From an uncultured delta proteobacterium (GTDB lineage Bacteria > Desulfobacterota > Binatia > DP-6): a DNA stretch of 64,000 nt. The notes beneath the pieces were generated by a model. The model was not told the DNA's origin and searched no databases. It worked only from the letters and a program-made list of their open reading frames with translations. Shown here one piece after another: positions 26,030-43,806 of the stretch. Location of the stretch: positions 32,001 to 96,000 of the forward strand of contig CAWFFN010000012.1 of assembly GCA_963815115.1 (NCBI GenBank), written 5' to 3'. Every line of letters starts with the position of its first letter. Within the stretch, counting starts at the first letter, position 1. The translations under genes and the position numbers were made by a program.

Positions 26030-27493
26030 TCAGCCGCCACCTGGCACCGCCGCGCCGGCGGCCGCAGGTTCCGGCGCGTGGCTCGCGGCATCTCGCAGCA
26101 ACGCGAACTCCGCGTCGACCGCGTCCACCAGCTCGTGGAGATCGGGGACGGCATCCCAGTCGGCGTTGAATCCCCACTCCACGCGGCCATCGTAGCTGAA
26201 CAGCGCGACTCCGAGCGCCTGGTTCGGGAAGAGGGGGACCAGGGGATGGCAGGCGACCATGCGCGCGCCCTCGACGTAGACCGGAAACTGCGGACCCGGC
26301 ACGTTCGTGACCACCAGGTTGTAGGGCTGCGCACGCGCCGCAAGCCGGGCGAACTGGGTAAGCAACGTCGTGAAGGTGCGATCGCTCAGCTCCTCCAGCG
26401 TCTGCATCCCGAGTGCCTGCTGCGATTGCTTCGCCGCGCGCGTCTCGGCGACCACGCGCTCCAGCCGCCGGCAGGGGTCGCGCTCGTCGAGCGGCAGGCG
26501 GGTCACCAGCATCGCCACCCGGTTTCCCAGCTCCCGCCGGTCGGCATCGCTACGAACGTTCACGGGCAGCATGGCGCGGAAGTCCATCCCGTCGACGGAG
26601 ATGCCGCGCCGGCGCAGGAAGCGCCGGAGCGCTCCCGACAGGACGGCCAGGACGACGTCGTTCACGGTGCCGCCGAGGCGCGCGCGGATGGCGCGCATCT
26701 CGGCCAGCTCCATGGTGGTCCAGTCGAACCGCCGGTGGGGCCCGATCTCGACGTTGAACGGCGTCGGCGACGAGGCGGAGACGCCGGCGCCGACGGCCTC
26801 GGCGATCGCGGTCAGGGCGCCCGCCGCGCGCGCCAGCGTGGCGCGGGGCGCGCGCACCGTCTCGCTCGTGGTCGCGAGCACGCTCAGCGGGGCCACGCCG
26901 CGATGAGAGAGCTCGTCCATGAGCAGCCGGAAGCCGCCGGGCGCCGGGCGGGGCAGCCAGCGCGGTGGCGGCTCCGCGAGGGCCGGATCGGGCTCGGGGC
27001 TCGGGCGCATGACGGAGGCCATCAGCTCGACGCTGCCCACGCCGTCGATCATGCAGTGGTGCACCTTCGTTATGATGGCGAATCGCCCCTCGTCGAGCCC
27101 CTCGACCACCCACATCTCCCAGAGCGGCTTCCCGCGATCGAGCTGCTGGGACATCAGGCGGCCGGCGAGCCGTTTGAGCTGCCGCTCGTCGCCCGGCCGC
27201 GGCAGATGGGTGTGGCGCACATGGTAGGCGAGGTTGAAGTGGGCGTCATCCACCCACACGGGATGGTCGAACAGCGGCACCCGCGCGATGCGCTGGCGGT
27301 AGCGCGGCATGCGATGGAGCCCGGCCTCCATGAGCCCGCGCACCCGCTCGATCTCGACGCCGCCCTCCCCGGTGCCGAGCGGCCCGGGCTCGAAGATCGC
27401 GACCGAGCCGATGTGCATGTGGCTGCTGGGATCCTCGAGCGCGAGAAAGCTCGCGTCCAGGGCCGAGAGGCGATCTGCATGTGTGTACGGCAT
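26030..27493 (-). CDS. Wax ester synthase/diacylglycerol acyltransferase (WS/DGAT) #1
   Basis: LSALDASFL, LDRGKPLWE, HHCMIDG, TVNDVVL, GNRV, VTNVPGP. Confidence 0.93.
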   Translation of the reverse strand: MPYTHADRLSALDASFLALEDPSSHMHIGSVAIFEPGPLGTGEGGVEIERVRGLMEAGLHRMPRYRQRIARVPLFDHPVWVDDAHFNLAYHVRHTHLPRPGDERQLKRLAGRLMSQQLDRGKPLWEMWVVEGLDEGRFAIITKVHHCMIDGVGSVELMASVMRPSPEPDPALAEPPPRWLPRPAPGGFRLLMDELSHRGVAPLSVLATTSETVRAPRATLARAAGALTAIAEAVGAGVSASSPTPFNVEIGPHRRFDWTTMELAEMRAIRARLGGTVNDVVLAVLSGALRRFLRRRGISVDGMDFRAMLPVNVRSDADRRELGNRVAMLVTRLPLDERDPCRRLERVVAETRAAKQSQQALGMQTLEELSDRTFTTLLTQFARLAARAQPYNLVVTNVPGPQFPVYVEGARMVACHPLVPLFPNQALGVALFSYDGRVEWGFNADWDAVPDLHELVDAVDAEFALLRDAASHAPEPAAAGAAVPGGG

Positions 27494-27502
27494 GGGAGGG
27501 AT

Positions 27503-27518
27503 AGCACGCGGCATGCCC
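27503..27518 (-). promoter_or_regulatory. sigma54 promoter
   Basis: GGGCATG-CCGC-GTGCT; predicted +1 ~27492, coincident with ATG 27493. Confidence 0.55.
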
Positions 27519-27558: not shown

Positions 27559-27574
27559 TTCTCAGTCCTCGGAA
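27559..27574. promoter_or_regulatory. Putative bEBP UAS centred between divergent promoters
   Basis: TTCTCA-GTCC-TCGGAA; 74.5 bp from both predicted +1 sites. Confidence 0.68.
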
Positions 27575-27614
27575 TGGGATGCCCCGGACGTTCGCAGCGT
27601 CAACGCGGCGGCCA

Positions 27615-27630
27615 TGGCACGGTGCCTGCT
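27615..27630 (+). promoter_or_regulatory. sigma54 promoter of ACAD-synthase-ACC-PPTase operon
   Basis: TGGCACG-GTGC-CTGCT; predicted +1 ~27641, ATG 27649. Confidence 0.7.
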
Positions 27631-27648
27631 CTTCAGGCGCGAGCCGAA

Positions 27649-29325
27649 ATGGCCCTCGATCACGAGACGCTGGACGCGAGCATCGCGGCCCTTCGCGAGT
27701 TCGCGTCGCGCAGGCTCCCTGACGGGATCCTCCTCGATCTCGATGCCCGCGACGAGTTTCCGGGCGATCTGATCCGGGCGATGTACGGTCCGGAGCTGGG
27801 CATCCACCTCTTCTTCATTCCCGAAAACCATCACGGCATGGGGGCCAGCGCGTTCGATCTCTCCCGTATCTGTGAAGAGCTGGCCCGCATCGACCTCGGA
27901 ATCGCGACCGGTGTCCTGGCAACCTTCCTCGGCAGCGAGCCGCTCCGCGTCGGCGGTACGCCGGAGCAGCAGGCCCGCTGGATGACCCGCATCGCCGACG
28001 AGGGCCTGTTGATGGCCTATGCCGCGACCGAGCCGGCGGCGGGCAGCGACCTGGCAGCGCTCCGCAGCACTGCGGCGCGGGTCGAGCGGGACGGCGTCGT
28101 GGTCGGCTACCGGATCACGGGCAGCAAGCAGTGGATCAGCAACGGCGGGGTCGCCGATCTCTACTGCGTCCTCGCCAGCGCGCCTGGCGGTCCGTCATGG
28201 TTCGTGGTCGAGCGCGGTGTCGATGGGCTGGCGCAGGGCAAGCCGGAGGACAAGCACGGCATCCGCGCCAGCAATACCGCCGCGCTCACCTTCGAGGACG
28301 TCTTCGTCGACGCGGACCGGCTGATCGGAGGCGTGGAGGGGCAGGGGCTGCTCCAGGCCCAGGCGGTGTTCGGCTACACCCGGCTGATGGTGGCCGCTTT
28401 CGGACTGGGTGCCGGGTGGGCGGCGCTCGACCGCGCGATTCCCTACTCGACGCAGCGGGTCCAGGCCGGCAGCCCGCTCAGCGAGAAGCAGGGCTATACC
28501 CACAAGCTCATCGTGCCGCACGTGGTCCGCCTGGAGGCGGCACGCGCCTACATCGAGGAGGTCGCCACCCGCCTTGACGCCGGCGGCGGCACGCTCATTA
28601 CAGAGGGTGCCATCGCCAAGTATCTCGCCACCGAGGCCGGTAACGCAGCGGCGGATGCCTCCATCCAGGCGCTCGGCGGCTATGGCTATACCCGCGAGTA
28701 TGTGGTCGAGAAGATCAAGCGCGACGTGCGCATCACCACAATCTACGAAGGCACCTCCGAGATCATGGAGATGACCATCGGCCGCGACCGCTGGCAGGAG
28801 CATCTGAAGACGCGCGGTGAACACTATCATCGCGCGGGCCGCGATCTGGAGGCCCTGCACGGCCGGCAGCCGGCGGTGGGCGCCGGCATGGCGGCGCTCG
28901 CGCTCCACGCCCTCGCCGAGGTCCTCGAGCGGGCGCGGCTGGCCCGCCTCACCCGCCACCAGCACGTCCTGCTGCGCCTGGGCGAGCTCATCGCTCACGC
29001 CGAGTGCTGCGCGAGTGCCGCGGGCCGGGCCGCGGCCGCGGCCGCGGGGACCCTCGACCCCCGTGCGCACGTCCGCTTCGACGCCGCCACGCAGGCCGCG
29101 ATCGCCCGGATCTACGCCCGGGAGACGGCGCTCAGGATCGCGAGCGACGGCCTCCGCCTGGTCTGCGGCGCGAGTCCGAACGGCGCCGCCGAGGCCGGTC
29201 CGCTCGCCGCCGCGCTCCGGCTGCCGACGATCCACGCCGCCCAGGCAGGGCTGCTGGTCGATCTCGGTCTGGTCGCGGATTCGCTCTACGGGCGGGGCGG
29301 CGTGCCGGCCCAGGCAACCGCCTGA
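27649..29325 (+). CDS. Acyl-CoA/acyl-ACP dehydrogenase with C-terminal helical extension
   Basis: [43 protein letters not shown] (catalytic Glu). Confidence 0.9.
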
Positions 29326-29345
29326 CGGAAAGGCGGGGAGGATCG

Positions 29346-32300
29346 ATGGACGACACGGCTCACCGCGCCATCGCCGTCGTGGGGCTCGGCGCGATCCTCC
29401 CGGACGCCCCCAGCGTCGCGGCGTTCTGGCAGAATCTCTGCGACGGCCGCTACAGCATCGGGGCGGTCCCGGAAGGTCGCTGGGACCCGGGCCTGTACTA
29501 CGATCCCGATCCCGCCGTTCCCGACAAGACCTACTCGAAGATCGGCGGCTGGGTGCGCGAGGCGCCGTGGGCCCCCGTCGAGTGGAAGCTGCCCATCCCT
29601 CCGCGGGTCAGCGACGCCATGGACGAGGGCCAGAAGTGGGCCATCGCCTGCACCCGCCAGGCTCTGGACGATCTGGCCGAGTCGGGGCACGGCCTCGATC
29701 CCGAGCGCACGGCGGTGGTGCTCGGCAACGCCATGGCGGGGGAGAAGCACTACCTCACGGTGTTGCGCATCCAGTTCCCGGAGTTTGCCGACGAGCTGGC
29801 GAAGGCGCCGAGCTTCGGCGCGCTGCCTCGCGCGGCGCGCGACGCCATCCTGCGCGAGCTCCACGCCGGGGTCGCGCACCGGCTCCCGGAGATCACCGAG
29901 GACACCATGCCGGGCGAGCTCGCCAACTGCATCGCCGGGCGGATCGCCAACCTGTTCAACTTCCGCGGCCCGAACTACGTGGTCGATGCGGCCTGTGCGT
30001 CCGCGCTCGCCGCCATCAGCGCCGCCGCCGAGGGGCTCATCGAGGGCGAGTACGACGCCGTCGTCGCCGGCGGCATCGATCGCAACATGGGCGCGTCGTC
30101 GTTCACCAAGTTCTGCAAGATCGGTGCGCTCTCCGCGACGGGCACGCGGCCCTACGCCGACGGCGCGGACGGCTTCGTCATGGGTGAAGGCGCGGCGGTC
30201 TTCGTGCTGAAGCGGCTCGCCGACGCCGAGCGTGCGGGCAACCGCGTCTATGCGGTCATCCGCGGCCTCGGCGGCTCGAGCGACGGCAAGGGCAAGGGCA
30301 TCACTGCGCCGAATCCGGTCGGACAGCGTCTGTCCATCGAGCGCGCCTGGCGCAATGCCGGACTCGCCCCGGCGACGGCGACCTACGTCGAGGGGCACGG
30401 CACCTCCACCCGAGTCGGCGACCTCGTCGAGGTGCAGAGCCTGAGCGAGGTGTTCGCGGCGGCGGGAGCGGCGCCGGGGACGATCGCGCTCGGCTCGGTG
30501 AAGTCGAACATCGGCCACCTGAAGGCCGCCGCCGGCGCGGCCGGGCTGCTCAAGACGGTCCTCGCCCTGCATCACGAGATGCTGCCGCCGAGCCTGCACT
30601 GCGAACGTCCGAACCCCGGCATCGACTTCGCGGCTTCGCCGTTCCGTGTGAACACCGCGGGGCGCCCGTGGGAGGTCCGGAGCGACGAGGTCCGCCGCGC
30701 CGGGATCAGCGCCTTCGGGTTCGGGGGCACCAACTTCCACGCCGTCGTGGAGCAGTTCGTCCCCGGGCGACTCGACGGCACGAGTCGCCGGAGTCGCGTG
30801 GTCAGCGCCGGCGTGCCGGCGGCGCCCCCGGATGCCGCGATGCCCAGGCCTCCGCTGCGCGGAGCGCTGGTGCTGGGCGCGCCGTCGGTGGCGGCGCTCG
30901 CCGAGCGCGTGCGCACGGTCGCCGGCGAGGCCGGTGCCGGCGTCGCGCCGGCGCCCGCACCGCCGGAGGAGGTCGACCTGCGCCAGCCCGAGCGCCTCGC
31001 GATCGACTACGGCGACGCGGCCGAGCTCGCCGACCGGGCGGCCAGGGCACTCGACGCCCTCGCCAGCGATGCGCCCGCGGCCTGGAAGGCGCTCCGCGCC
31101 CAGGGGATCTTCCGCGGCCACGGTGCCGCGCCCAAGGTCGCCTTTCTCTATACCGGGCAGGGCTCGCAGTACGTGAACATGCTGAAGGGGCTGCGCGCGG
31201 CCGAGCCGATCGTCGCCGACACCTTCGCGCTCGCCGACCGCGTGATGAGCCCGCTGCTGGGCCGGCCGCTCACCGATTACATCTTCGCCGCCGAAGACGC
31301 CGAAAGCATCGCGAGCGCCGAGGAGGCGCTCAAGCAGACAGCGGTGACGCAACCCGCCGTGCTGGCAGCCGACGCCGCGCTCACGCGCCTGCTCGCTGCC
31401 TACGGCATCGTGCCCGATCTGGTGATGGGACACAGCCTCGGCGAGTACGGCGCACTGGTCGCGGCGGGTGCCTTGCCGTTCGAGGATGCCCTCGAGGCGG
31501 TGAGCGCGCGCGGCCGCGAGATGACGAGCCTCACGATCGAGGACTGCGGTGCGATGGCCGCCGTGCTGGCACCCCTGGACGAGGTGGAGCGCATCCTCGG
31601 AGGCGTCGAGGGGTACGTCGAGATCGCGAACCTGAACAGCACCAAGCAGTGCGTGATCGGCGGCGCGACGGCGGCCGTCGAGCGCGCGATCGCCGCGGTG
31701 CAGGCCGCGGAGTACACGGCCATCCCGCTGCCGGTGAGCCACGCCTTCCACACCCGCATCGTGGCGCCGGCGAGCGAGCCGCTGCGCCTCGTGCTCGGGC
31801 GGCTCCGGCTCCAGTCGCCGACGCTGCCCATCGTTGCCAACGTGAGCGGCGAGTTCTACCCCATGGGCCCCGGGGTGGCGGCCGAGATGGTCGACATCCT
31901 CGGCCGCCAGGTGGCCTCGCCGGTCCAGTTCGTGAAGGGGCTGGAGACGCTGTATGCGGCCGGCGCGCGCGTCTTCGTCGAGGTCGGCCCCAAGCGCGCG
32001 CTGCAGGGCTTCGCCGACGACGTCCTCGGCGGCCGGCCGGACGTCGTCTCGCTCTTCACCAACCACCCCAAGCTGCCGGACGCGGTCGCCTTCAATCAGG
32101 CGCTGTGCGGGCTCTACGCCGCCGGCCTCGGGGTCGGCCGCGCCGCGCCCGCTCGCGTCCGCGACGTCGCCACCGCGGCCGCGGCGGTCCCCGCTCCCGC
32201 GCCGCTCGTGGCGCCCGCGGCGCACCTGCCGGTCGCGGCGCCCGCGGGCGAGGTCCCGGCCGAGACGCAGCGCGCGCTCGGGCGCCTCGCCCTCGCGTTT

Positions 32301-35300
32301 CTCGAGCGGGCGTCCGGCCTGATCCCCGGGGCGGCGCACGCGCAGGTGCCGGTCGTCGTCACCGGGGCGGCGCTCGGTCTCCCCGGCACCGAGCACGTGT
32401 TCGACGACGACAACGTCGGACAGCTGCTCCACGGCGCGCAGCTGATCGACGTCATTCCGGCGCGCTTTCGCCACGCGATCCTCGACAAGCACATCACGCG
32501 GCTGGTGAAGAGCGACGAGGGCGGCCACTTCGAGGTGATCGAGCACGAGAGCGACGTGCTCAAGCTCGCGGCCCGCGGCGGGGCGTTCGACCTCGGGGCG
32601 GAGTTCGGCGTCCCCGCCGAGCGCCTCGGCGCCCTCGACCGCACGACGCAGCTCGCCATCGGCGCGGGGATCGACGCCCTGCGCGATGCGGGCATCCCGC
32701 TCGTGATGCGCTATCGCACGACCAGCAAGGGCACGCGCCTGCCAGAGCGCTTCGAGCTGCCGGAGCCGCTCCGTGACGAGACCGGCGTCATCTTCGCATC
32801 GGCCTTCCCCGGCTATGACGCCTTCGCCGCCGAGCTGGCCGACTACCACTCCGACCGGGCGCGACGCGAGGAGCTGGCGCTGCTGGAAGGGTTGCGCACC
32901 CGGCTCGCCGAGTCGGCCAACGGCCACGACCTGTCCGTCACGGAGGTGGACCGGCTGATCCACGACCGCCGGACGGCGATCGAGCGGCAGCCCTACGCGT
33001 TCGACCGCCGTTTCCTGTTCCGCGTCCTCTCCATGGGGCACTCGCAGTTCGCGGAGCTGATCGGAGCGCGCGGGCCGAACACGCAGGTGAACGCCGCCTG
33101 CGCCAGCACGACGCAGGCGCTGGGGCTGGCGGAGGACTGGATTCACGCCGGCCGGTGCCGCCGCGTCATCGTCATCGCCGCCGACGACGTCACCAGCGAC
33201 CACCTGCTGGAGTGGTTCGGCGCTGGCTTCCTGTCGACGGGTGCCGCCGCCACCGACGACGTGATCGAGGAGGCCGCGCTGCCCTTCGACCGGCGCCGGC
33301 ACGGCATGATCCTCGGCATGGGCGCGGCGGCCATCGTCGTCGAGCACCCCGACGCCGCCCGCGAGCGCGGCATCCAGCCAGTCTGCGAGGTCGTGGCCAC
33401 CGTCACCGCGAACAGCGCCTTCCACGGGACGCGGCTCGACGTCGAGCACATCGGGCAGGTGATGGAGCAGGTCGTTGCCTGCGCCGAAGCGCGCACCGGC
33501 ATCCCGCGCGCCGTCATGGCGCCGCAGCTCATGTTCGTCTCGCACGAGACCTACACGCCGGCACGGGGAGGCAGCGCCGCGGCCGAGGTCCACGCCCTGC
33601 GCCAGACCTTCGGTGCGAACGCCGAGCGGATCGTGGTGGCGAACACGAAGGGATTCACCGGACATCCGATGGCGGTCGGCATCGAGGACGTGGTCGCCGT
33701 CAAGGCGCTGGAGACCGGGCTGGTGCCACCGGTCGCGAACTTCAAGGAAGTCGACCCGGAGCTCGGGCCGCTGCACCTCTCCCCCGGCGGCGCCCACGAC
33801 ATCGAGTGGGCGCTGCGTCTGGGCGCGGGCTTCGGCTCGCAGATCAGCATGGTGCTGCTGCGGCGGACGCCGCTCGCCCGCGAGACGCGTCCCGCGCCGG
33901 ACGAGCTCGGCTACGCCTCCCGCGTCATCAGCGCTGCTGCGTGGCGGGAGTGGCTGGCCCGCATGAGCGGCGAGGCGAGCCCCGAGCTCGAGGTCGTCGC
34001 CCGCACGCTCCGGGTGAAGGAGCGTGCGGGCGCCGCACGTCCGGTCGCCGTGGCGGCCGTGGCATCCCCGTTGCCCGTGCCCGTCGCTGCGCCGGCGCCG
34101 GCGGCCGTCGATCCCGTGGAAGCGCGCGTGCTCGCGGTCGTGGCGGAGAAGACCGGCTATCCGCCGGACATGCTCGCGCTCGACCTCGACCTCGAGGCCG
34201 ATCTCGGCGTGGACACCGTCAAGCAGGCCGAGACGTTCGCGGCGGTGCGGCAGGCGTACGACATCCCGCGCGACGACAAGCTCAAGCTGCGCGACTTCCC
34301 GACCCTCGCCCACGTCATCCAGTTCGTCTACGACCGCCGGCCCGACCTGGTGGCGGCGAGGGCCGCCGTGCCCGCCGCGGCGCCGGCGCCGGCGGCGGGA
34401 GCCGTCGCGGAGCGTGACGAGGTCCGCGAGCGGGTGCTCGCGATCGTGGCGGAGAAGACCGGCTATCCGTCGGACATGCTCGCGCTCGACCTCGACCTCG
34501 AGGCCGATCTCGGCGTGGACACCGTCAAGCAGGCCGAGACGTTCGCGGCGGTGCGGCAGGCGTACGACATCCCGCGCGACGACAAGCTCAAGCTGCGCGA
34601 CTTCCCGACCCTCGCCCACGTCATCCAGTTCGTCTACGACCGCCGGCCCGACCTGGTGGCGGCGAGGGCCGCCGTGCCCGCCGCGGCGCCGGCGCCGGCG
34701 GCGGGAGCCGTCGCGGAGCGTGACGAGGTCCGCGAGCGGGTGCTCGCGATCGTGGCGGAGAAGACCGGCTATCCGTCGGACATGCTCGCGCTCGACCTCG
34801 ACCTCGAGGCCGATCTCGGCGTGGACACCGTCAAGCAGGCCGAGACGTTCGCGGCGGTGCGGCAGGCGTACGACATCCCGCGCGACGACAAGCTCAAGCT
34901 GCGCGACTTCCCGACCCTCGCCCACGTCATCCAGTTCGTCTACGACCGCCGGCCCGATCTCGGACAGGGAGCGGGCGCGGCGAGTGACGACACGACATCG
35001 CGCGCTCCGGCCGCGGCGCCGGTGCCGGACCTCCGCATCCGTGCGCGCGTTCCGCGTCGCGTGCCCGTACCGGTGCTCCGGCCCGGGCTCGACCTCTGCG
35101 TGCCGACGGGCGTGACGCTGACGGGGGGGAGCCGTGTCCTCGTCATGGCGGATGGTGGTGGGGTCGCGGAGGCGCTGGCAACGCGCCTCCGCACCGAGGG
35201 AGTCACCGCGCTGGTGGTGGACGATGCGCCTGCGGCCGAGACGCTCGAGCAGCGGGTGCTGGGCTGGCTCGCCGACGGACCGATCCAGGGCGTCTACTGG

Positions 35301-37535
35301 CTGCCCGCGCTCGACGGCGACCCCGACCTCGCCGAGATGGACATCACTTCCTGGCGCGAGGCGCTGCGCGTGCGGGCGAAGCTCCTGCACGTCGTGCTGC
35401 GCCTCGTCGACGCGGGCATGGAGGAGCCCGGCCGCTTCCTGGTGGCGGCGACGCGACTCGGCGGACGGCACGGGTACGACGACGTCGACGTCCCCGCGCC
35501 GATGGGCGGCGCGGTGACGGGGCTGGTGAAAGCCTATCGCCGCGAGCGCGCGGCGCTCGTGAAGGCCGTCGACTTCGAATCCACCCGCGCGCCGGCGGAG
35601 ATCGCGGACGTGCTGGTGGCCGAGACGCTCGCCGACCCCGGGGCGGTGGAGATCGGCTACGCGGGCGGGTTGCGCTGGACGGTGGGCCTCGCGGACGCCC
35701 CAGCCGCAGATGGCCAGCCCGGCCTGGTCCTCGGCCGCGAGACGGTGTTCGTGGTGACCGGCGCGGCAGGCGGCATCGTGTCGGCCATCGTGGCGGACCT
35801 TGCCGCCGCCTCGGGTGGCAGCTTCCACCTCCTCGACCGGGTACCCGAGCCGAAGGAGGACGATCCCGACGTTGCCCGGCTCGATCGTGACCGCGACGGC
35901 CTCAAACGTGACCTCGCCGAGCGCCTGCGGGGCCGGGGCGAGCGGCCGACTCCAGCCCTCGTCGAACGTGAGCTGGCTGCGCTCGAGCGGGCGCAGACGG
36001 CGCTCGACGCGCTGCATGCCGTCCGCCGGGCGGGCGGAACCGCGTCCTACCACGCCGTCGATCTGCTCGACGCCGCCGCGGTCGCCGGGGTGGTCGACGA
36101 GATCCGGCGGCACCACGGCCGCATCGACGTCCTGCTCCACGCGGCGGGGCTCGAGGTGAGCCACCTGGTCGGACAGAAGCCGGCCACGGAGTTCGACCGC
36201 GTCCTCGACGTGAAGTGCGACGGCTGGTTCAACCTGATGCGCGCCGCCGCCGACCTGCCGATCGGCGCGGCGGTCGCTTTCAGCTCCATCGCCGGCCGCT
36301 TCGGCAACCGCGGCCAGACCGACTACAGCGCCGCCAACGACCTCCTCTGCAAATGGACCGCGAAGCTCCGGACCGTGCGACCGGCGATGCGCGCGATCGC
36401 CATCGACTGGACCGCCTGGTCCGACATCGGCATGGCCTCGCGCGGCTCGATCCCGACCGTGATGGCGGCAGCCGGGATCGACATGCTGCATCCGGACGAC
36501 GGCATCCCGATCGTGCGCGCGGAGCTGACGGCGGGCGGGACGCGGGGCGAGGTGGTGATCGCGGACCGCCTGGGCGTCCTCGTCGAGGAGTGGCACGCGA
36601 CGGGCGGACTCGACCCGGCCCGGGCCGAGCGTCTGGTGCAGGAAGCGGGGGGCCCGGTGCTCGGGTCGGTCGTCGAGATGGGCGTGCACGGCGGCCTCGC
36701 GGTCGAGACCATCCTCGACGCGCGACAGCCATTCCTGGGCGATCACCGCATCGACGGCACCCCGGTGCTCCCCGGTGTCATGGGCATCGAGGCGTTCGCG
36801 GAGGTGGCGGCGCTGCTCGTGCCCGGGTGGCACGTGCACGGCGTCGAGGACGTGCACTTCCTCGCCCCCTTCAAGCTCTACCGGGACGAGCCGCGCGCGG
36901 CGCGGATCGAGGCGACGCTGCGCGCGGACGGCGACGGCCTCCTCGCCGACTGCCGTCTCCTCGGCAGCCGGAAGCTTCCCGCCCAGGACGCGCCGCAGGT
37001 GACGACGCACTTCACCGCCCGCATCCGCCTCCGGCGCCCGGCGCCCGCGGTCGAGCACGCCGAGCCGCCCCCGCCGCCCAACGGGCGCGCGGTCACGGCC
37101 GAGGACATCTATCGCGTCTACTTCCACGGCCCGGCCTACCGCGTCCTCGAGCGCGTGTGGCGCGACGGCGACCGCGTCGTCGGGCTCATGGCCCGCGGGC
37201 TCCCGCCGGACCGCCTGCCCGCGGGATGCCGCACCCGTCTGGCTCCCCGCCTGATCGAGCTCTGCTTCCAGACCGCCGGCATCGCCGAGCTCGCGCGCAC
37301 GGGCCGCATGGGCCTGCCCGAACGCATCGAGCGCGTCGTGCCAGGGCAGCCGGACGAGGAGACCGACGAGCGGCTCTTTGCCGTCGTCAGCCGGCGGGCC
37401 GACGGCGCCTTCGACGCGCACGTCGTGGACGGGGCCGGGACCGTGCACGTCGCCCTGCACGGCTACCGCACGGTCGAGCTCCCGGCGAGCGTTGCCGACG
37501 CGCAGATCGCCGCGCTCCAGGCCGTCGCCGGGTGA
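29346..37535 (+). CDS. Iterative type I PKS/FAS-like synthase, KS-AT-KS-ACP-ACP-ACP-KR-DH (2729 aa), PfaA-related
   Basis: KS1 DAACAS/HGTST/KSNIGH; AT GHSLG and HAFH (malonyl); KS2 NAACAS/SHETYT/TKGFTGH; ACPx3 DLEADLGVDTVK; KR TGAAGGI, YSAAND; DH HRIDGTPVLPG; no ER or TE. Confidence 0.9.
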   Translation: MDDTAHRAIAVVGLGAILPDAPSVAAFWQNLCDGRYSIGAVPEGRWDPGLYYDPDPAVPDKTYSKIGGWVREAPWAPVEWKLPIPPRVSDAMDEGQKWAIACTRQALDDLAESGHGLDPERTAVVLGNAMAGEKHYLTVLRIQFPEFADELAKAPSFGALPRAARDAILRELHAGVAHRLPEITEDTMPGELANCIAGRIANLFNFRGPNYVVDAACASALAAISAAAEGLIEGEYDAVVAGGIDRNMGASSFTKFCKIGALSATGTRPYADGADGFVMGEGAAVFVLKRLADAERAGNRVYAVIRGLGGSSDGKGKGITAPNPVGQRLSIERAWRNAGLAPATATYVEGHGTSTRVGDLVEVQSLSEVFAAAGAAPGTIALGSVKSNIGHLKAAAGAAGLLKTVLALHHEMLPPSLHCERPNPGIDFAASPFRVNTAGRPWEVRSDEVRRAGISAFGFGGTNFHAVVEQFVPGRLDGTSRRSRVVSAGVPAAPPDAAMPRPPLRGALVLGAPSVAALAERVRTVAGEAGAGVAPAPAPPEEVDLRQPERLAIDYGDAAELADRAARALDALASDAPAAWKALRAQGIFRGHGAAPKVAFLYTGQGSQYVNMLKGLRAAEPIVADTFALADRVMSPLLGRPLTDYIFAAEDAESIASAEEALKQTAVTQPAVLAADAALTRLLAAYGIVPDLVMGHSLGEYGALVAAGALPFEDALEAVSARGREMTSLTIEDCGAMAAVLAPLDEVERILGGVEGYVEIANLNSTKQCVIGGATAAVERAIAAVQAAEYTAIPLPVSHAFHTRIVAPASEPLRLVLGRLRLQSPTLPIVANVSGEFYPMGPGVAAEMVDILGRQVASPVQFVKGLETLYAAGARVFVEVGPKRALQGFADDVLGGRPDVVSLFTNHPKLPDAVAFNQALCGLYAAGLGVGRAAPARVRDVATAAAAVPAPAPLVAPAAHLPVAAPAGEVPAETQRALGRLALAFLERASGLIPGAAHAQVPVVVTGAALGLPGTEHVFDDDNVGQLLHGAQLIDVIPARFRHAILDKHITRLVKSDEGGHFEVIEHESDVLKLAARGGAFDLGAEFGVPAERLGALDRTTQLAIGAGIDALRDAGIPLVMRYRTTSKGTRLPERFELPEPLRDETGVIFASAFPGYDAFAAELADYHSDRARREELALLEGLRTRLAESANGHDLSVTEVDRLIHDRRTAIERQPYAFDRRFLFRVLSMGHSQFAELIGARGPNTQVNAACASTTQALGLAEDWIHAGRCRRVIVIAADDVTSDHLLEWFGAGFLSTGAAATDDVIEEAALPFDRRRHGMILGMGAAAIVVEHPDAARERGIQPVCEVVATVTANSAFHGTRLDVEHIGQVMEQVVACAEARTGIPRAVMAPQLMFVSHETYTPARGGSAAAEVHALRQTFGANAERIVVANTKGFTGHPMAVGIEDVVAVKALETGLVPPVANFKEVDPELGPLHLSPGGAHDIEWALRLGAGFGSQISMVLLRRTPLARETRPAPDELGYASRVISAAAWREWLARMSGEASPELEVVARTLRVKERAGAARPVAVAAVASPLPVPVAAPAPAAVDPVEARVLAVVAEKTGYPPDMLALDLDLEADLGVDTVKQAETFAAVRQAYDIPRDDKLKLRDFPTLAHVIQFVYDRRPDLVAARAAVPAAAPAPAAGAVAERDEVRERVLAIVAEKTGYPSDMLALDLDLEADLGVDTVKQAETFAAVRQAYDIPRDDKLKLRDFPTLAHVIQFVYDRRPDLVAARAAVPAAAPAPAAGAVAERDEVRERVLAIVAEKTGYPSDMLALDLDLEADLGVDTVKQAETFAAVRQAYDIPRDDKLKLRDFPTLAHVIQFVYDRRPDLGQGAGAASDDTTSRAPAAAPVPDLRIRARVPRRVPVPVLRPGLDLCVPTGVTLTGGSRVLVMADGGGVAEALATRLRTEGVTALVVDDAPAAETLEQRVLGWLADGPIQGVYWLPALDGDPDLAEMDITSWREALRVRAKLLHVVLRLVDAGMEEPGRFLVAATRLGGRHGYDDVDVPAPMGGAVTGLVKAYRRERAALVKAVDFESTRAPAEIADVLVAETLADPGAVEIGYAGGLRWTVGLADAPAADGQPGLVLGRETVFVVTGAAGGIVSAIVADLAAASGGSFHLLDRVPEPKEDDPDVARLDRDRDGLKRDLAERLRGRGERPTPALVERELAALERAQTALDALHAVRRAGGTASYHAVDLLDAAAVAGVVDEIRRHHGRIDVLLHAAGLEVSHLVGQKPATEFDRVLDVKCDGWFNLMRAAADLPIGAAVAFSSIAGRFGNRGQTDYSAANDLLCKWTAKLRTVRPAMRAIAIDWTAWSDIGMASRGSIPTVMAAAGIDMLHPDDGIPIVRAELTAGGTRGEVVIADRLGVLVEEWHATGGLDPARAERLVQEAGGPVLGSVVEMGVHGGLAVETILDARQPFLGDHRIDGTPVLPGVMGIEAFAEVAALLVPGWHVHGVEDVHFLAPFKLYRDEPRAARIEATLRADGDGLLADCRLLGSRKLPAQDAPQVTTHFTARIRLRRPAPAVEHAEPPPPPNGRAVTAEDIYRVYFHGPAYRVLERVWRDGDRVVGLMARGLPPDRLPAGCRTRLAPRLIELCFQTAGIAELARTGRMGLPERIERVVPGQPDEETDERLFAVVSRRADGAFDAHVVDGAGTVHVALHGYRTVELPASVADAQIAALQAVAG
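34128..34957 (+). repeat. 306-bp tandem repeat encoding the three ACP domains
   Basis: TGGCGGAGAAGACC at 34141, 34447 and 34753; period-306 identity appears perfect over 34165-34957. Confidence 0.92.
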
Positions 37536-40500
37536 GCGACATGCGAGACCAGTTCGGCCGCATCGCGGTCGTCAACCGCGGCGAGGCCGCGATGCGGCTC
37601 GTTCACGCCGTCCGCGAGCTCAACCACGAGCACGGCACGGCGATGCGGACGATCGCGCTGGTCACCGAGCCCGATCGGGCGGCCATGTTCGCCCGCGAGG
37701 CCGACGAGGTGCACGATCTCGGCCCCGCGCTGTACGACGGGCCGGGCGGCCGGCGCTCCGCCTACGTCGACCTGGAACGGCTCGAGCAGGCGCTCCGTGC
37801 CACCCGCGCCGACGCGGCATGGGTGGGCTGGGGCTTCGTCGCCGAGCGCGCCGAGTTCGCCGAGCTGTGCGCGCGGCTCGACGTGGTCTTCATCGGACCG
37901 AGCCCGGCCGCGATGCGGCTCCTGGGCGACAAGATCGCCGCCAAGCGGCTCGCCGAGCGCGCCGGCATCGCCGTGGTGCCGTGGAGCGGCGGCGCCATCC
38001 GGACGCCGGCGGACGCGGTCGAGCACGCGCGCGCGCTCGGCTTCCCCCTCATCCTGAAGGCGGCGGCGGGCGGCGGCGGGCGTGGCATCCGCGAGGTCGG
38101 CAACGAGGCGCAGCTGCTCGCCGCCCTCGAGCCCACCGCCAGCGAGGCGGCGCAGGCCTTCGGCGACGGCACGCTCTTCCTCGAGCGGCGGGTCGCGGCC
38201 GCGCGGCACGTCGAGGTGCAGGTGGTGGCCGACCGCCACGCGACCGTGTGGGCGCTCGGCGTCCGCGACTGCACGCTCCAGCGCCGCCACCAGAAGGTGG
38301 TCGAGGAATCCCCCTCGCCGGCGCTGTCCGCGGCGGAGGACGCCATCCTGCGTGCGGCCGCGGTGCGGCTGGCACGCGCCGCCGGCTACGAGAACGTGGG
38401 GACCGTCGAGTTCCTCTTCGACCCGGTGGGCCGGGAAGCCTGGTTCATGGAGGTGAACACGCGCCTCCAGGTCGAGCACCCCGTGACCGAGTGCACCACG
38501 GGCAGCGATCTCGTGAAGCTCCAGCTTCACGTCGCCCTGGGTGGCAGGCTCGAGGGGGACCCTCCGGCGGTGCGTGGCCATGCCATCGAGGTCCGGCTCA
38601 ACGCGGAGGATCCGGAGAACGGGTTTGCCCCGGCGCCCGGCCAGGTCGAGCTGCTCCGCCTCCCCGGTGGTCCGGGCATCCGTGTCGACCGCGGCGTGGA
38701 CGAGGGCGATCGCATCGCGCCGCAGTTCGATTCCATGATCGCCAAGATCGTCGCCCACGGCGCCGGCCGCGGCGAGGCGCTTGCCCGGCTGCGCCGGGCA
38801 CTCGCCGACACCACCGTCGTGGTCCGCGGCGGCGCCACCAACCGGGCCTTCCTCCTGGGCCTCCTCGACCGGCCCGAGGCCGCCCGCGGCGACTACGACA
38901 ACGGCTGGCTCGATCGGCTGGTCGTCGAGGGCGCGCACCTGCCGCACGGAGGCGTCGAGATCGCGTTGCTCGCGGCGGCGGTGGAGGTCTACGAGGCAGA
39001 AGCGACGATCGAGGTGCGCGGCTTCCTCGCCTCGGCAGCGCGGGGCCGTCCCGCGGTCCCGCCAGACATCGGGCACGCCGCCAAGCTCCGGGTGCATGGA
39101 GTGACCCACGCCGTCGAGGCGCGGCGCCTCGGGCCGCACGCCCATCGCGTCACCGTCGAGGGGCGCACGATCGCCGTGGGCGTGGAACGGGTCGGCTCCT
39201 TCGAGCGCTGGCTCACCGCCGGCGGGCAGCGCCACCGCCTCGTCTCGGTCAGCGACGGCGAAGCGTATCGCATCGAGGTCGACGGGGTTCCCCACCGTAT
39301 CGGACGCGACGAGGGCGGCGTGGTGCGAGCGCCTGCGCCGGCGATGGTGCTGTCGATCGCCGTCGGACCCGGCGACCTGGTCGCGGCGGGGGACCGTGTC
39401 GCGGTGCTCGAGGCGATGAAGACCGAGATCCCGATCCTTGCGCCGGTCGCAGGGCGCGTGCGGAGCGTGCTGGTGACCGCCAACCTCCAGGTGGATGCCG
39501 GCGCCCCGCTGCTCGTGCTCGAACCCACCCAGGCCGCGGCGGACGAGCGTGCCGGCGACGGCCTCGCCCTCGACCGGCTCGTTTCCACGCCGCGCCCGAC
39601 GGGTTCGGCCGACGCGCGCCGCGAGGCGCTCGAGACGCTGCGGCAGCTCATCCTCGGGTTCGACGTGGAGCCGGCCGACGCGCGCCGCCTGGCGGCGGAG
39701 TGGTCCCGGGCCGGAGACGACGCGGAGCTTCGCCGGGCGGAGGACGATCTGCTCGACCTCTTCGTCGACGTCCATTGCGTGTTCGACCATCGCGGGATCG
39801 ACGACGAGCCGGAGGAGCCGGGATCGGTGAGCGCCCAGGAGTACGTCCTGAGCTACCTGCGCACGCTCGATGCGGAGAGCGGGAACCTGCCCGGATGGTT
39901 CGTCGAGCGGCTGCGCCGGGCGCTTGCCCGACACGGCGTGCACTCCCTGGAGCGCTCGGCGGCACTCGAGGCCAGCTGGGTTCGCCTCTTTCGCGCGCAC
40001 CAACGCGTGGAGGAGCAGGTGCCGGTGGTCATGCGCATCCTCGAGCGGCGTCTGCAGGCGGTCCCCGAGGAGGGAGCGGAGGGATCCGCGGCGATGCTCG
40101 ACCGCATGGTCGCGCTCGGCGGCGCCGCACACCCGGCGCTCGCCGATCTGGCGCGGGAGCTGCGCTACCGCTGGTACGATCGGCCGCTGTTCGAGCAGAC
40201 GCGCGCCGCCGTCTACCGCCAGGTGGAAGCCCACCTGGCGGCCCTCGCCAGCCCCGGCGACTCCGGACGGGCGGAGCACGTCGCCTGGCTCGTCGACTGT
40301 TCCCAGCCGCTCGTGGGGTTGCTCTGCCCGCGCCTCGACCGTGCGTCACCGCCGCTCCGGCGGACGATGCTGGAGGTCCTGGTCCGCCGATACTACCGCA
40401 TCCGCGACCTCCGAGGTCTCGAGTTGAGGGACGTGGGCGGCCGGACGTGCGCCGTGGCCGAGTACGGGTTCGACAATCGCCGCATCCATCTGTTCGCCAC

Positions 40501-43093
40501 CTACGCGGCGTGGGCGGGTCTCGGTGACGCGGCCCGTGCCCTTGGCCGACTCATCGCCGACGTCCCCGCCGAGCACGACGTCGTCGTCGACTTCTTCCTC
40601 TGCCGCGATGGCGCGTCGTCCGAGGATCCGGACGCCGTCGCCGCCGCAGCGCTCGCGGCCCTCCGGGAGGCGGGCTTCCCGCGCGGGCTCCGGCGGATCG
40701 TGGTCATGATCGCGACCGAGGGCCGCCTCGGCATCGGCGACGTGCTCCACTTCACGTACCGGCCCGACGGCGACGGCTATCGCGAGGAGCGCCTGTATCG
40801 CGGCCTCCATCCCATGATGGGCAAGCGGCTCCAGCTCTGGCGGCTGCGCAACTTCGACATCGAGCGACTGCCGTCGGTGGAGGACGTCTATCTCTTCCGC
40901 GCCGTCGCGCAGGCGAACCCGAAGGACGAGCGCCTGTTCGCCCTCGCCGAAGTGCGCGACCTGACGCCTGTCCGGGACGCGGAGGGGCACGTGGTACAGC
41001 TGCCTCACCTGGAACGCGTCCTCGCCGAAGCGCTGGCCGCCATCCGCCTCCAGCAGGCGCAGCGCGCGCCCGACCGCCGTCTCTACTGGAACCGGGTGCT
41101 CCTGCACGTCTGGCCGCCGATGACGCTCACGCCCGACGAGCTGGATCATCTCGTCCGCAAGCTCGCGCCGGGAACGGCCGGGCTCGGCCTCGAGAAGGTG
41201 GTGTTGCGCGCACGCATCCCCGACCCGGCGGGCGGCGAGCTGCGCGACACCATTCTCCAGGTCACCAATCCCGGTGGCCGCGGCTTCACGATCACGGCGC
41301 TCCCGCCGGCGGAGCTGCCGATCCGGCCGCTCACCGAATACGCCCAGAAGGTCGTGCGCCTGCGCCGGCTCGGGCTCACCTATCCCTACGAGGTGGTCCA
41401 CATGCTGACGCCGTCCGAGGGGCAGCGGTCGGCGTTTCCGCCCGGCGAGTTCGTCGAGCACGACCTGGACGCGACGGGACGCCTCGTGCCCGTCGAGCGG
41501 CCGCCTGGCGCCAACACGGTCAACCTCGTCGTCGGCGTGATCCGGAACCGGACGGCGAGCTACCCGGAGGGCATGACGCGCGTGTGCCTGCTCGGCGATC
41601 CGAGTCGCAGCATGGGCGCGCTGGCGGAGGCCGAGTGCCGCCGCATCATGGCGGCGCTCGACCTCGCCGAGACGATGCGGGTCCCTCTCGAGTGGTTCGC
41701 GATCTCGGCCGGCGCGAAGATCTCGATGGAGAGCGGCTCCGAGAACATGGATTGGATCGCCCGCGTCCTGCGCCGCCTGATCGAGTTCACCCAGGCGGGC
41801 GGCGAGGTCAACGTCGTGGTCGCGGGGATCAACGTCGGCGCGCAGCCGTACTGGAACGCCGAGGCGACGATGCTGCAGCATACCCGCGGCGTCCTCATCA
41901 TGACGCCCGAGGGTGCGATGGTGCTCACCGGCAAGCGCGCGCTGGACTACTCCGGGGGCGTGTCGGCGGAGGACAACTTCGGCATCGGCGGCTACGAGCG
42001 CGTCATGGGGCCGAACGGCCAGGCGCAGTACTGGGCTCGCGACCTCGCCGACGCATGCCGCATCCTCTTCCAGCACTACGAGCATTCCTACGTGGCGCCT
42101 GGCGAGCGTTTCCCTCGCCGGAAAGCGACCGCCGACCCGGGCGACCGCGACGTGCGCGATGCGCCTCACGGCGACGGCTTCGTACGCGTCGGCGACGTCT
42201 TCAGCGACGAGTTCAACCCCGGTCGCAAGCGCCCGTTCGAGATCCGCAGGGTGATGGCCGCGACGATCGATCGGGATCGCCCGCCGCTCGAGCGCTGGGC
42301 CGCGATGCGCGACGCCGAGGTCGCCGTGGTGTGGGATGCCCATCTCGGGGGCCATCCGGTCTGCCTGCTCGGGATCGAATCGCGGCCGGTGCCGCGCCTC
42401 GGTCTCGTGCCCGCCGACGGCCCCGAGCAGTGGACGGCGGGCACGCTCTTCCCGCGCGCGTCGAAGAAGGTGGCACGCGCCATCAACGCGGCGAGCGGGA
42501 ACCGTCCGGTCGTGGTGCTCGCCAACCTTTCCGGCTTCGACGGCTCCCCGGAGTCGCTCCGCGAGCTGCAGCTCGAGTACGGAGCGGAGATCGGCCGCGC
42601 CGTGGTGAACTTCGACGGGCCGATCGTCTTCTGCGTGATCTCGCGCTATCACGGGGGCGCCTACGTCGTGTTCTCCAGCGCGCTCAACGCATCGGTGGAG
42701 AGCGCCGCGGTGGAGGGCTCCTACGCCTCCGTGATCGGCGGCGCGCCGGCGGCGGCCGTGGTGTTCGCAGGCGAGGTGGATGCCAGGACACGGCGCGACC
42801 CTCGCGTGGCCGCGGTGGAGGCGGAGGTCGCGGCAGCCGACGGGCCCGAGAAGGCGCGGCGGCGGGCGGCTCTCGCGGAGGTGTGGGCGGTCGTGCACGC
42901 CGAGAAGCTCGGCGACGTGGCGCGCGAGTTCGACCAGGTCCACAGCGTCTATCGCGCGCAGCAGGTCGGCTCGATCCATCGCATCATCCCCGCCGCCGCC
43001 CTGCGCCCATACCTGATCGACGCGGTCGCGCGGGGCATCCAGCGGACGCTCGAGGCGGCGCGGCCACGGACGGCGGAGCATCCGGCGGCATGA
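37532..43093 (+). CDS. Single-chain multidomain acetyl/acyl-CoA carboxylase (BC-BCCP-central-CT, ~1850 aa)
   Basis: BC NRGEAA, GGGGRG, QRRHQK, EVNTRLQVEHPVTE; biotin site EAMK; CT with ANLSGFDGS; GTGA overlap with synthase stop (alternative ATG 37541). Confidence 0.9.
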   Translation: MSDMRDQFGRIAVVNRGEAAMRLVHAVRELNHEHGTAMRTIALVTEPDRAAMFAREADEVHDLGPALYDGPGGRRSAYVDLERLEQALRATRADAAWVGWGFVAERAEFAELCARLDVVFIGPSPAAMRLLGDKIAAKRLAERAGIAVVPWSGGAIRTPADAVEHARALGFPLILKAAAGGGGRGIREVGNEAQLLAALEPTASEAAQAFGDGTLFLERRVAAARHVEVQVVADRHATVWALGVRDCTLQRRHQKVVEESPSPALSAAEDAILRAAAVRLARAAGYENVGTVEFLFDPVGREAWFMEVNTRLQVEHPVTECTTGSDLVKLQLHVALGGRLEGDPPAVRGHAIEVRLNAEDPENGFAPAPGQVELLRLPGGPGIRVDRGVDEGDRIAPQFDSMIAKIVAHGAGRGEALARLRRALADTTVVVRGGATNRAFLLGLLDRPEAARGDYDNGWLDRLVVEGAHLPHGGVEIALLAAAVEVYEAEATIEVRGFLASAARGRPAVPPDIGHAAKLRVHGVTHAVEARRLGPHAHRVTVEGRTIAVGVERVGSFERWLTAGGQRHRLVSVSDGEAYRIEVDGVPHRIGRDEGGVVRAPAPAMVLSIAVGPGDLVAAGDRVAVLEAMKTEIPILAPVAGRVRSVLVTANLQVDAGAPLLVLEPTQAAADERAGDGLALDRLVSTPRPTGSADARREALETLRQLILGFDVEPADARRLAAEWSRAGDDAELRRAEDDLLDLFVDVHCVFDHRGIDDEPEEPGSVSAQEYVLSYLRTLDAESGNLPGWFVERLRRALARHGVHSLERSAALEASWVRLFRAHQRVEEQVPVVMRILERRLQAVPEEGAEGSAAMLDRMVALGGAAHPALADLARELRYRWYDRPLFEQTRAAVYRQVEAHLAALASPGDSGRAEHVAWLVDCSQPLVGLLCPRLDRASPPLRRTMLEVLVRRYYRIRDLRGLELRDVGGRTCAVAEYGFDNRRIHLFATYAAWAGLGDAARALGRLIADVPAEHDVVVDFFLCRDGASSEDPDAVAAAALAALREAGFPRGLRRIVVMIATEGRLGIGDVLHFTYRPDGDGYREERLYRGLHPMMGKRLQLWRLRNFDIERLPSVEDVYLFRAVAQANPKDERLFALAEVRDLTPVRDAEGHVVQLPHLERVLAEALAAIRLQQAQRAPDRRLYWNRVLLHVWPPMTLTPDELDHLVRKLAPGTAGLGLEKVVLRARIPDPAGGELRDTILQVTNPGGRGFTITALPPAELPIRPLTEYAQKVVRLRRLGLTYPYEVVHMLTPSEGQRSAFPPGEFVEHDLDATGRLVPVERPPGANTVNLVVGVIRNRTASYPEGMTRVCLLGDPSRSMGALAEAECRRIMAALDLAETMRVPLEWFAISAGAKISMESGSENMDWIARVLRRLIEFTQAGGEVNVVVAGINVGAQPYWNAEATMLQHTRGVLIMTPEGAMVLTGKRALDYSGGVSAEDNFGIGGYERVMGPNGQAQYWARDLADACRILFQHYEHSYVAPGERFPRRKATADPGDRDVRDAPHGDGFVRVGDVFSDEFNPGRKRPFEIRRVMAATIDRDRPPLERWAAMRDAEVAVVWDAHLGGHPVCLLGIESRPVPRLGLVPADGPEQWTAGTLFPRASKKVARAINAASGNRPVVVLANLSGFDGSPESLRELQLEYGAEIGRAVVNFDGPIVFCVISRYHGGAYVVFSSALNASVESAAVEGSYASVIGGAPAAAVVFAGEVDARTRRDPRVAAVEAEVAAADGPEKARRRAALAEVWAVVHAEKLGDVAREFDQVHSVYRAQQVGSIHRIIPAAALRPYLIDAVARGIQRTLEAARPRTAEHPAA

Positions 43094-43806
43094 CTGGCGT
43101 CGATCCCTCGCGCGGAGCGACCCGTCCGGTCGGGGTCCTCATGGCCCACGTCGGCGAGGTGCCGCCGGGAGACGCCTGGCTCGGAGCGCGGGAGCGCGCG
43201 GTCCTCACCACGCTGCGCTTCCCGAAGCGGCGAGCGGACTGGCGCCTCGGACGCTACGCGGCGAAGCGGGCCGCGGCGGGGTGGCTCGGGCGCCCCACCC
43301 GTCTCGAGGAGCTCGCGGGGCTCGAGATCCTCGCCGACGGGGATGGGGCGCCGCGGCTCCATCTCGAGGGCGCGGCGCGCGTCGCGCTGTCGCTCAGCCA
43401 TCGCGACGCGTGGGGAATGGCGGCGGTGGCCAGCCCCGAGGTGGCGCTCGGGTGCGATCTCGAGCTCGTCGAGCCGCGCAGCGAGCTGTTCCTGGCCGAC
43501 TACCTCACCTCGCGCGAGCAGGCGCTCGTGGCGGCCGGCGACCCGGACGATGGCGTGCGGAGGGCCACCCTCGTCTGGTCGGTGAAGGAATGTGTTCTCA
43601 AGGCGCTCCGCGAGGGCCTGCGCCTGGACACGCGCTCGGTCGAGCTGGCGGAGCGGGCCGGCGAGCCCGTGCGCGGATGGTCGCCCGTGGCGGGGCGCGA
43701 AATCCCGGGCGGTCCGGTCTTCGAGGGATGGTGGCGCCCGTACGGCGCGATGCTCGCCTGCGTCCTCGGAGCCCCCGCGCTCGGAGCGCCGCTCACACTC
43801 ACCTGA
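43090..43806 (+). CDS. Sfp-type 4'-phosphopantetheinyl transferase
   Basis: LSLSH, LGCDLE, WSVKECVLKA; ATGA overlap with carboxylase. Confidence 0.88.
   Translation: MTGVDPSRGATRPVGVLMAHVGEVPPGDAWLGARERAVLTTLRFPKRRADWRLGRYAAKRAAAGWLGRPTRLEELAGLEILADGDGAPRLHLEGAARVALSLSHRDAWGMAAVASPEVALGCDLELVEPRSELFLADYLTSREQALVAAGDPDDGVRRATLVWSVKECVLKALREGLRLDTRSVELAERAGEPVRGWSPVAGREIPGGPVFEGWWRPYGAMLACVLGAPALGAPLTLT

Follow-up and report, generated by a model that had tools for sequence, protein, structure and literature searches.

The window analyzed here is a stretch of 64,000 nucleotides from an uncultured delta proteobacterium (GTDB lineage Bacteria; Desulfobacterota; Binatia; DP-6), taken from contig CAWFFN010000012.1 of GenBank assembly GCA_963815115.1 (positions 32,001 to 96,000, forward strand). 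It contains an operon for a PfaA-like iterative synthase whose three acyl carrier protein (ACP) domains have a threonine where the serine that accepts the 4'-phosphopantetheine arm is expected. In fatty-acid, polyketide and non-ribosomal peptide synthesis, a conserved serine is regarded as the universal attachment site of phosphopantetheine, and, to our knowledge, curated protein-modification lists name only the serine-linked form. An earlier note on the sequence of the window had drawn attention to the threonine and suggested that this synthase family may carry its arm on that residue.

The synthase operon and its carrier domains

The genes and domains of the locus are as follows, in window positions (KS, ketosynthase; AT, acyltransferase; KR, ketoreductase; DH, dehydratase; ACC, acetyl-CoA carboxylase; PPTase, phosphopantetheinyl transferase).

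27574-29325, + strand: acyl-CoA dehydrogenase-family gene, 583 amino acids (Pfam Acyl-CoA_dh_N/M/1); opens the conserved module
29004-37535, + strand: open reading frame with the synthase, no internal stop; probable start ATG at 29346
29346-37535, + strand: putative Type R PfaA-like iterative synthase, 2,729 amino acids, domain order KS-AT-KS-ACPx3-KR-DH (Pfam)
29364-30605, + strand: first ketosynthase, KS1 (Pfam); Cys, His and His present
31143-32003, + strand: AT (Pfam); motifs GHSLGE and HAFH
32352-33866, + strand: second KS-like domain, KS2, the 'CLF' (chain-length factor) of Shulse and Allen (Pfam); Cys, His and His kept
34110-34343, + strand: ACP domain 1; Thr codon ACC at 34215-34217
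34416-34649, + strand: ACP domain 2; Thr codon ACC at 34521-34523
34722-34955, + strand: ACP domain 3; Thr codon ACC at 34827-34829
35751-36425, + strand: KR (Pfam); motif YSAAN
36654-37487, + strand: DH of the polyketide synthase (PKS) type (PKS_DH_N and PS-DH); motif HxxxGxxxxP
37532-43093, + strand: single-chain multidomain ACC, 1,853 amino acids, with BC, BCCP, ACC_central and CT regions
43090-43806, + strand: PPTase of Sfp size, 238 amino acids (PF01648, 54.8 bits against a cut-off of 25)

The sequence DLGVDTVK occurs three times in the translation of the open reading frame, at residues 1733, 1835 and 1937, within the fuller motif DLGVDTVKQ, and its Thr is encoded each time by ACC (34215, 34521 and 34827), exactly as the earlier note had read it. 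The serine that is expected at the N-terminus of helix II in PF00550 carriers is absent from all three domains and is replaced by this Thr; the folded core of domain 1 contains no Ser at all. The domains are nevertheless recognizable as carriers, the synthase scoring 59 bits with PF00550 against a cut-off of 20.8, or about 27 bits per domain. The array forms a tandem repeat at 34124-34957 with a period of 306, 2.7 copies and 99% matches (Tandem Repeats Finder). Because the DNA of the copies is 99% identical, the three ACPs of the window amount to a single observation, a caution that the earlier note had already attached to its reading.

A search of the whole genome with PF00550 gave no other carrier domain inside the window, where its matches span C12:66125-66937 (window 34125-34937). 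Elsewhere in the genome it gave 13 further PP-binding matches, 12 of which have Ser in the usual motif and one of which (L013) lacks a clear motif; none has Thr at the site. The catalytic motifs of KS1, AT, KS2, KR and DH were all found in the translation of the synthase. The start codon of the ACC gene, GTG, overlaps the stop codon of the synthase gene, and the ATG of the PPTase gene overlaps the ACC stop codon; the ACC gene is, as far as the sequence tells, translationally coupled between the other two. The remaining observations of the earlier note on the locus, namely that the KS, AT, KR and DH active sites look intact, that no other carrier domain is visible in the window and that an Sfp-type PPTase (here the PF01648 protein at 43090-43806, joined by overlapping start and stop codons) sits in the same operon, agree with these results.

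The layout is that of a known class, which the earlier note had not recognized. The main text of Shulse and Allen (2011, PLoS One 6:e20146, PMC3098273) describes a Type R secondary-lipid synthase as a pfaA homologue of the order KS-MAT-CLF-ACP(3-6)-KR that is followed by a PPTase gene, with an ACC gene between the two in Koribacter versatilis, and places the class, without a known product in that 2011 catalogue, in scattered members of the Acidobacteria, Chloroflexi and Elusimicrobia. Pfam finds the same order in the window (KS, AT, KS-like, three PP-binding domains and KR, then DH), and the downstream PPTase (43090-43806) is present together with the optional intervening ACC (37532-43093). 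Matched by domain order and gene layout, the locus is a Type R cluster. It differs from the passages that describe the class by its conserved upstream acyl-CoA dehydrogenase gene and its C-terminal DH, neither of which appears in them. The words 'threonine' and 'serine' do not appear in the main text of PMC3098273, a count that leaves aside its supplements, including the PPTase alignment figure.

Conservation of the threonine

Homologues of the ACP region were retrieved by a search seeded with shared five-residue words, which gave 5,876 scored hits; the best 120 proteins (1,577-4,263 amino acids) are considered here. Their sources include Oscillochloris, Chloroploca, Anaerolineae, Terriglobales, Blastocatellia, Saprospiraceae, Nocardioidaceae, Desulfoluna and Thermoplasmatota archaea. 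Among the 608 domains of these proteins that cover the site in a domain hidden Markov model (HMM), 599 have Thr, seven Ser, one Pro and one Lys. Six of the seven serines belong to a single canonical PfaA-type protein (P0068, motif DSIKR) and the seventh to the first ACP of an archaeal protein (P0017), while Pro and Lys come from two degenerate domains of P0063 that score 17 and 24 bits. Thr is present in every detected ACP of 117 of the 120 homologues, which hold 4-8 ACPs per protein, and in domains scoring at least 85 bits the site is Thr or Ser and never Ala or Gly.

A scan that took a single genome for each species turned up at least 398 related stretches, and the best 80 loci were kept; these include Acidobacteriota, Myxococcota, Chloroflexota, Leptospiraceae, Rhodothermales, Gemmatimonadales, Ilumatobacteraceae and others. 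All 303 motif sites in the 80 loci are Thr, encoded by ACC (156), ACG (118), ACT (15) and ACA (14). All four Thr codons are in use, and therefore selection acts on the residue. A sample blind to the ACPs was drawn by a KS-AT search of representatives, which was dominated by 137 giant modular PKSs and listed 13 single-module relatives, six of them without an ACP region; the other seven all have the Asp-Thr (DT) form. In the 137 modular PKSs (each longer than 3,500 amino acids), which served as a control, a loose motif gave 569 Ser and four Thr, three of the latter in KS or other contexts and one in an ACP-like context. A regular expression was used for this control since the HMM of the DT-type ACPs, being highly specific, matched just eight ACPs in the 137 proteins. 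Residue 2152 of P0224 lies in an isolated GMDTV in the ACP-like context of a modular PKS, perhaps a Thr (or dead) carrier that occurs sporadically beyond the family.

These counts dispose of an account in which the Thr is a private mutation, a sequencing error or a sign of a decaying gene. The near identity of the three copies would suit such an event, but the homologue counts and those of the 80 loci with their four codons refute it, and the reading frame is intact with its catalytic motifs present; its probability is negligible. The outcome that the earlier note had held against its own proposal, homologues that all have Asp-Ser, did not occur. The Thr is family-wide and under selection.

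The Thr also belongs, as judged by alignment, to one ACP subfamily, in which DT is always followed by Val at +1 and by Lys-Gln at +2 and +3. Among known systems, the PfaA/PfaE synthases of polyunsaturated fatty acids (PUFAs) resemble the window in their tandem ACPs and in the PPTase gene of the cluster, and they share the domain's N-terminal half as far as the motif (KTGYP...LEADLGID). Their ACPs read DSIKR[VI]EIL, with Ser, whereas the window type reads DTVKQ[AV]E.F and has a different second half. Within the window's phylum, 13 of 151 genomes, including that of the window, have an ACP match at E <= 1e-10; among the remaining 12, two carry the DT type and ten the PfaA type DSIKR[VI]EIL, which is also that of P0068. 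DT-type ACPs are thus present in two of the 150 other genomes of the phylum, and a search of one genome from the same family found none. Apart from the near-identical L019, a Terriglobales locus is closest in KS-AT, at 69% identity. Because the cluster is sporadic in the window's phylum and, L019 aside, its nearest KS-AT lies in Terriglobales, these comparisons suggest horizontal transfer of the cluster.

Two variants were noted beside the main pattern. One of the ten PfaA-type genomes (G112; G112:C1:208877-209401, L103) has tandem ACPs with DSIKQVEIF in an open frame of 3,636 amino acids; this motif joins Ser and Ile, as in the PfaA type, to Lys-Gln and Phe, as in the Thr type, and may represent an evolutionary intermediate. 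In P0220 and P0253, DT-type ACPs stand straight after the first KS (around residues 510-630) and again later in the protein, so that the DT carrier type extends, by its sequence, beyond the order KS-AT-KS-ACPn-KR-DH.

Position of the threonine in the ACP fold

The best sequence match among solved structures is the doublet ACP of PigH from prodigiosin biosynthesis (PDB 5y08, E = 7.5e-10), which is tandem like the window array but has a Ser acceptor and serves another pathway. Its phosphopantetheinylated serines align with the window Thr (DLGVDS and DLGIDS against DLGVDT), as does the Ser of type II ACPs. In an AlphaFold model built from 32 sequences (pLDDT 83.9, pTM 0.74) the Thr opens helix II, and the best Foldseek matches of this model in the PDB are all ACPs, with TM scores of 0.75-0.9 normalized to the target. 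By alignment and in the model, the Thr occupies the Ser position of the four-helix ACP fold.

The archaeal members show both residues at this site. In nine Thermoplasmatota enzymes the first ACP has Ser in seven and Thr in two, and all later ACPs have Thr; the first ACPs, whether Ser or Thr, share one scaffold and score 85-95 bits on the DT-ACP HMM. If the hydroxyl is the group that functions and a single PPTase can serve either residue, a site that admits only Thr and Ser in well-scoring domains is what one would predict; the archaeal alternation thus points to the hydroxyl as the feature that matters.

The partner phosphopantetheinyl transferase

A PPTase homologue lies downstream of the synthase in 52 of the 56 loci with enough flanking sequence. 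Of the four loci without a clear one, L051 ends inside the ACC gene, L083 has a weaker match and L021 and L078 have none. Conservation of GxDT across distant genomes together with the PPTase, the check that the earlier note had put forward, is therefore borne out by the 303 of 303 sites and the 52 of 56 loci. Fusion of the two proteins was also observed: the PPTase is fused into the synthase in nine of ten archaeal proteins, eight of the nine Thermoplasmatota proteins that were recovered have it (the ninth is partial) and the bacterial genome G148 encodes a PPTase domain and DT-ACPs in one frame of 3,558 amino acids. In 121 genomes of one class, the PPTases that score 289-315 bits with the family profile and the DT-ACPs of at least 140 bits are confined to the same four genomes and lie on the same contigs there, all other PPTase matches reaching at most 95 bits; this sample is the class around one acidobacterial carrier, which as the chosen centre is one of the four positives, and related genomes are not independent. 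The only other PPTase match in the window's genome is an AcpS-type gene of 157 amino acids on another contig. Taken across these genomes, the PPTase is genetically tied to the DT-ACP synthases, being co-inherited with them and sometimes fused to them.

The enzyme itself combines ordinary catalytic residues with a distant sequence. Asp106, Glu108, Trp146, Lys149, Glu150 and Lys154 are invariant in 32 sequences of the family (numbered from the Met at 43141), and the residues that match Asp107 and Glu109 of Sfp and the W-x-K-E motif are among the invariant positions. The PF01648 domain and the invariant motif residues are shared with Sfp (1qr0, 4mrt) and AcpS, and Sfp is likewise a protein of about 230 amino acids, with two lobes. 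The window PPTase is nevertheless very distant from both, and its subfamily was found only beside DT-ACP synthases in the genomes searched. Profile comparison gives E = 8e-13 to AcpS and 3e-10 to Sfp, and comparison of the single sequence with Sfp E = 0.025; the top NCBIfam match is AcpT, at 28.9 bits against a cut-off of 174. PF17837 (4PPT_N) scores 18.2 bits, under its cut-off of 27, and the family profile aligns to positions 20-178 of Sfp.

This distance leaves room for an enzyme that modifies the Thr with some other CoA-derived group, and a related proposal is that the Thr forms a direct O-acyl ester. The single-sequence E value to Sfp and the low AcpT score would do no more than allow such a group or chemistry. 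The PPTase keeps the Mg- and CoA-binding and catalytic residues of Sfp and AcpS, and a direct oxo-ester would provide neither an arm nor a thioester. The active sites of ordinary KS, AT, KR and DH domains can be reached only by a long thiol arm, as in fatty-acid synthases and PKSs. A non-standard modification is accordingly rated as improbable.

The earlier note had described the PPTase as specialized. This part of its proposal stands insofar as the enzyme belongs to a subfamily that is co-inherited with or fused to the synthases, but its catalytic motifs are like those of Sfp and it is probably not specific for Thr alone. Since one fused archaeal PPTase faces both a Ser-ACP and Thr-ACPs, the archaeal enzyme probably accepts both residues.

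Model of the PPTase-carrier complex

Complexes of Sfp with a peptidyl carrier protein and of AcpS with ACP have been solved. A predicted complex of the window PPTase with CoA, Mg and ACP gave a score of 0.64, against 0.01 for the best of three controls, and passed a mark that 58 of 80 solved complexes, and two of 110 mismatched pairs, also attain. At least 94% of the contacts are common to the runs, with a partner pLDDT of 75 or more, and the low-error contacts include Glu150-Thr44, Glu108-Val45 and Trp146-Val45. This pass may reflect memory of the solved PPTase-carrier complexes; it shows a likeness to a normal pair with Thr at the active site and nothing more.

The model also bears on the idea that the arm sits on another conserved hydroxyl, the helix-II Thr being structural only. 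The alignment of 32 ACP sequences contains no invariant Ser, but Thr23 (of EKTGYP), Tyr25 and Thr73 are invariant in it and could in principle serve. In every solved complex PPTases address a position other than these three residues; homology and the complex model place Thr44 beside the catalytic Glu150, and alternation with Ser is seen at position 44 only. This alternative is considered very unlikely, more so than a non-standard modification.

Other features of the locus

The synthase scores 929 bits with TIGR02813 (PfaA), under the cut-off of 1010.1, and the best stretch covers the KS-AT part only; NCBIfam has no model that is specific to the synthase or the PPTase. The motifs NAACAST, SHETYT and FTGHP give KS2 a full Cys/His/His triad, and the domain named chain-length factor by Shulse and Allen looks, from these motifs, like a second active ketosynthase and not like a Gln-type chain-length factor.

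The most constant neighbour is the acyl-CoA dehydrogenase gene, which directly precedes the synthase, in the same orientation, in 65 of 67 evaluable loci, with protein identities of 57-71% when the near-identical L019 is set aside. Its product has a conserved C-terminal extension of about 180 amino acids without a Pfam match, and its top NCBIfam match is acryloyl-CoA reductase (217 bits, under the cut-off). Because the synthase has no enoyl reductase domain, this protein may be a candidate enoyl reductase for it. In 31 of the 56 evaluable loci a fused ACC separates the synthase from the PPTase; the single-chain ACC of the window operon has a eukaryote-style architecture, and some Chloroflexota loci have just a biotin-carboxylase-like match, downstream of the PPTase.

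Beyond the operon, a gene for a wax-ester synthase/diacylglycerol acyltransferase (WS/DGAT; 26030-27514, - strand) that lies divergently beside it was considered as a clue to the product and rejected, as it is conserved in none of the 80 loci. The GAPDH, GNAT-ACS and PFOR neighbours likewise occur in none of the 80 related loci. At 21524-24217 of the window, a GNAT acetyltransferase is fused to a region resembling ADP-forming acyl-CoA synthetases (CoA_binding, Succ_CoA_lig and ATP-grasp_5), which is the layout of a Pat-type protein acetyltransferase.

Discussion

The explanation that we favour, and regard as probable on comparative and structural-model grounds, is that the window ACPs are working carriers with 4'-phosphopantetheine on the helix-II Thr, loaded by the PPTase of the operon. 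The three domains would act as the acyl carriers of a Type R PfaA-like iterative synthase; the arm would be attached to the Thr at the start of helix II (DLG[VI]DTVKQ), which would replace the universal Ser; and it would be transferred from CoA by the PPTase encoded at the operon end, a member of a separate subfamily inherited only with these synthases. We infer that phosphopantetheinylation of the Thr hydroxyl is made possible by this partner enzyme. The proposal of the earlier note that the family may carry its arm on Thr is supported to this extent, by comparison and by structural models.

Several points weigh against the threonine linkage. In the best-studied case, that of E. coli ACP, a passage of PMC3340395 reports the S36T variant as one that 'cannot be post-translationally modified by 4'-PP' and that fails to make up for the deletion of acpP, so that Thr is not generally accepted by PPTases. 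The motifs of the window PPTase (GxDxE and WSxKE) are ordinary, and no residue that would explain the acceptance of Thr was found in its sequence. No PPTase lies nearby in L021 and L078, both of which have enough flanking sequence. The samples, too, are not neutral: the Thr was part of one of the six patterns by which loci were fetched, so that the 80-locus set and its 303 sites are biased towards Thr, and the search behind the 120 homologues and their 599 threonines was seeded with words from the ACP region itself.

The main rival builds on the same E. coli result. According to it, the Thr domains are unphosphopantetheinylated scaffolds or docking modules, the acyl chain being carried in trans by a Ser-ACP such as the housekeeping AcpP, which the operon PPTase would serve. 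The genome does hold 12 canonical Ser carriers among its 13 other PP-binding matches, and a Ser-ACP precedes the Thr-ACPs in seven of nine archaeal enzymes. However, in two archaeal orthologues even the first ACP has Thr, 117 of the 120 homologues have it in every detected ACP, and a PPTase with its substrate elsewhere would hardly be expected to belong to a subfamily that is found only together with these synthases, or even fused to them. The arrays of 4-8 copies keep about 25 invariant positions, the whole helix-II recognition face included, as expected of working tandem carriers such as those of PfaA, and the site varies to Ser only, never to Ala or Gly, in domains of at least 85 bits. Unmodified Thr domains are therefore judged unlikely, if slightly less so than a non-standard modification. 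The change that is an inactive allele in E. coli AcpP, according to the same passage of PMC3340395, is the conserved natural state in the window family.

The favoured explanation, phosphopantetheine on the helix-II Thr, can be extended from the window to the family. We consider it somewhat better than an even chance that O-(4'-phosphopantetheinyl)-threonine is the natural and obligatory linkage of a synthase family in hundreds of bacterial and archaeal species, with a co-evolved Thr-accepting PPTase, unlike the AcpS-AcpP pair of E. coli. It may be speculated that the Thr shields the carriers from the housekeeping AcpS or stabilizes the phosphodiester; if the linkage is real, the residue would reserve the carriers for their own PPTase or make the linkage more resistant to removal.

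The Type R layout has already been catalogued; the Thr acceptor was found in none of the literature searched. Full-text literature, papers on PUFA synthases included, gave no Thr acceptor, no DTVK-type ACPs and no follow-up of Type R (subscription papers and supplements were outside this search). Ser is taken for granted in annotation rules and sequence patterns, and a Ser-to-Thr change serves as a dead allele in E. coli; the sequence and model evidence collected here points to an undescribed mode of cofactor attachment in a widespread synthase family. If this is true, a large natural family of Thr carriers tied to its own PPTase would constitute a new protein modification, and the pair would offer an orthogonal carrier and PPTase for labelling and pathway engineering. 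It would also explain a possible failure of these abundant synthases of soil, sludge and marine archaea when expressed with Sfp alone. The Thr acceptor would provide an experimental entry point to a class of clusters that has been without a known product since 2011.

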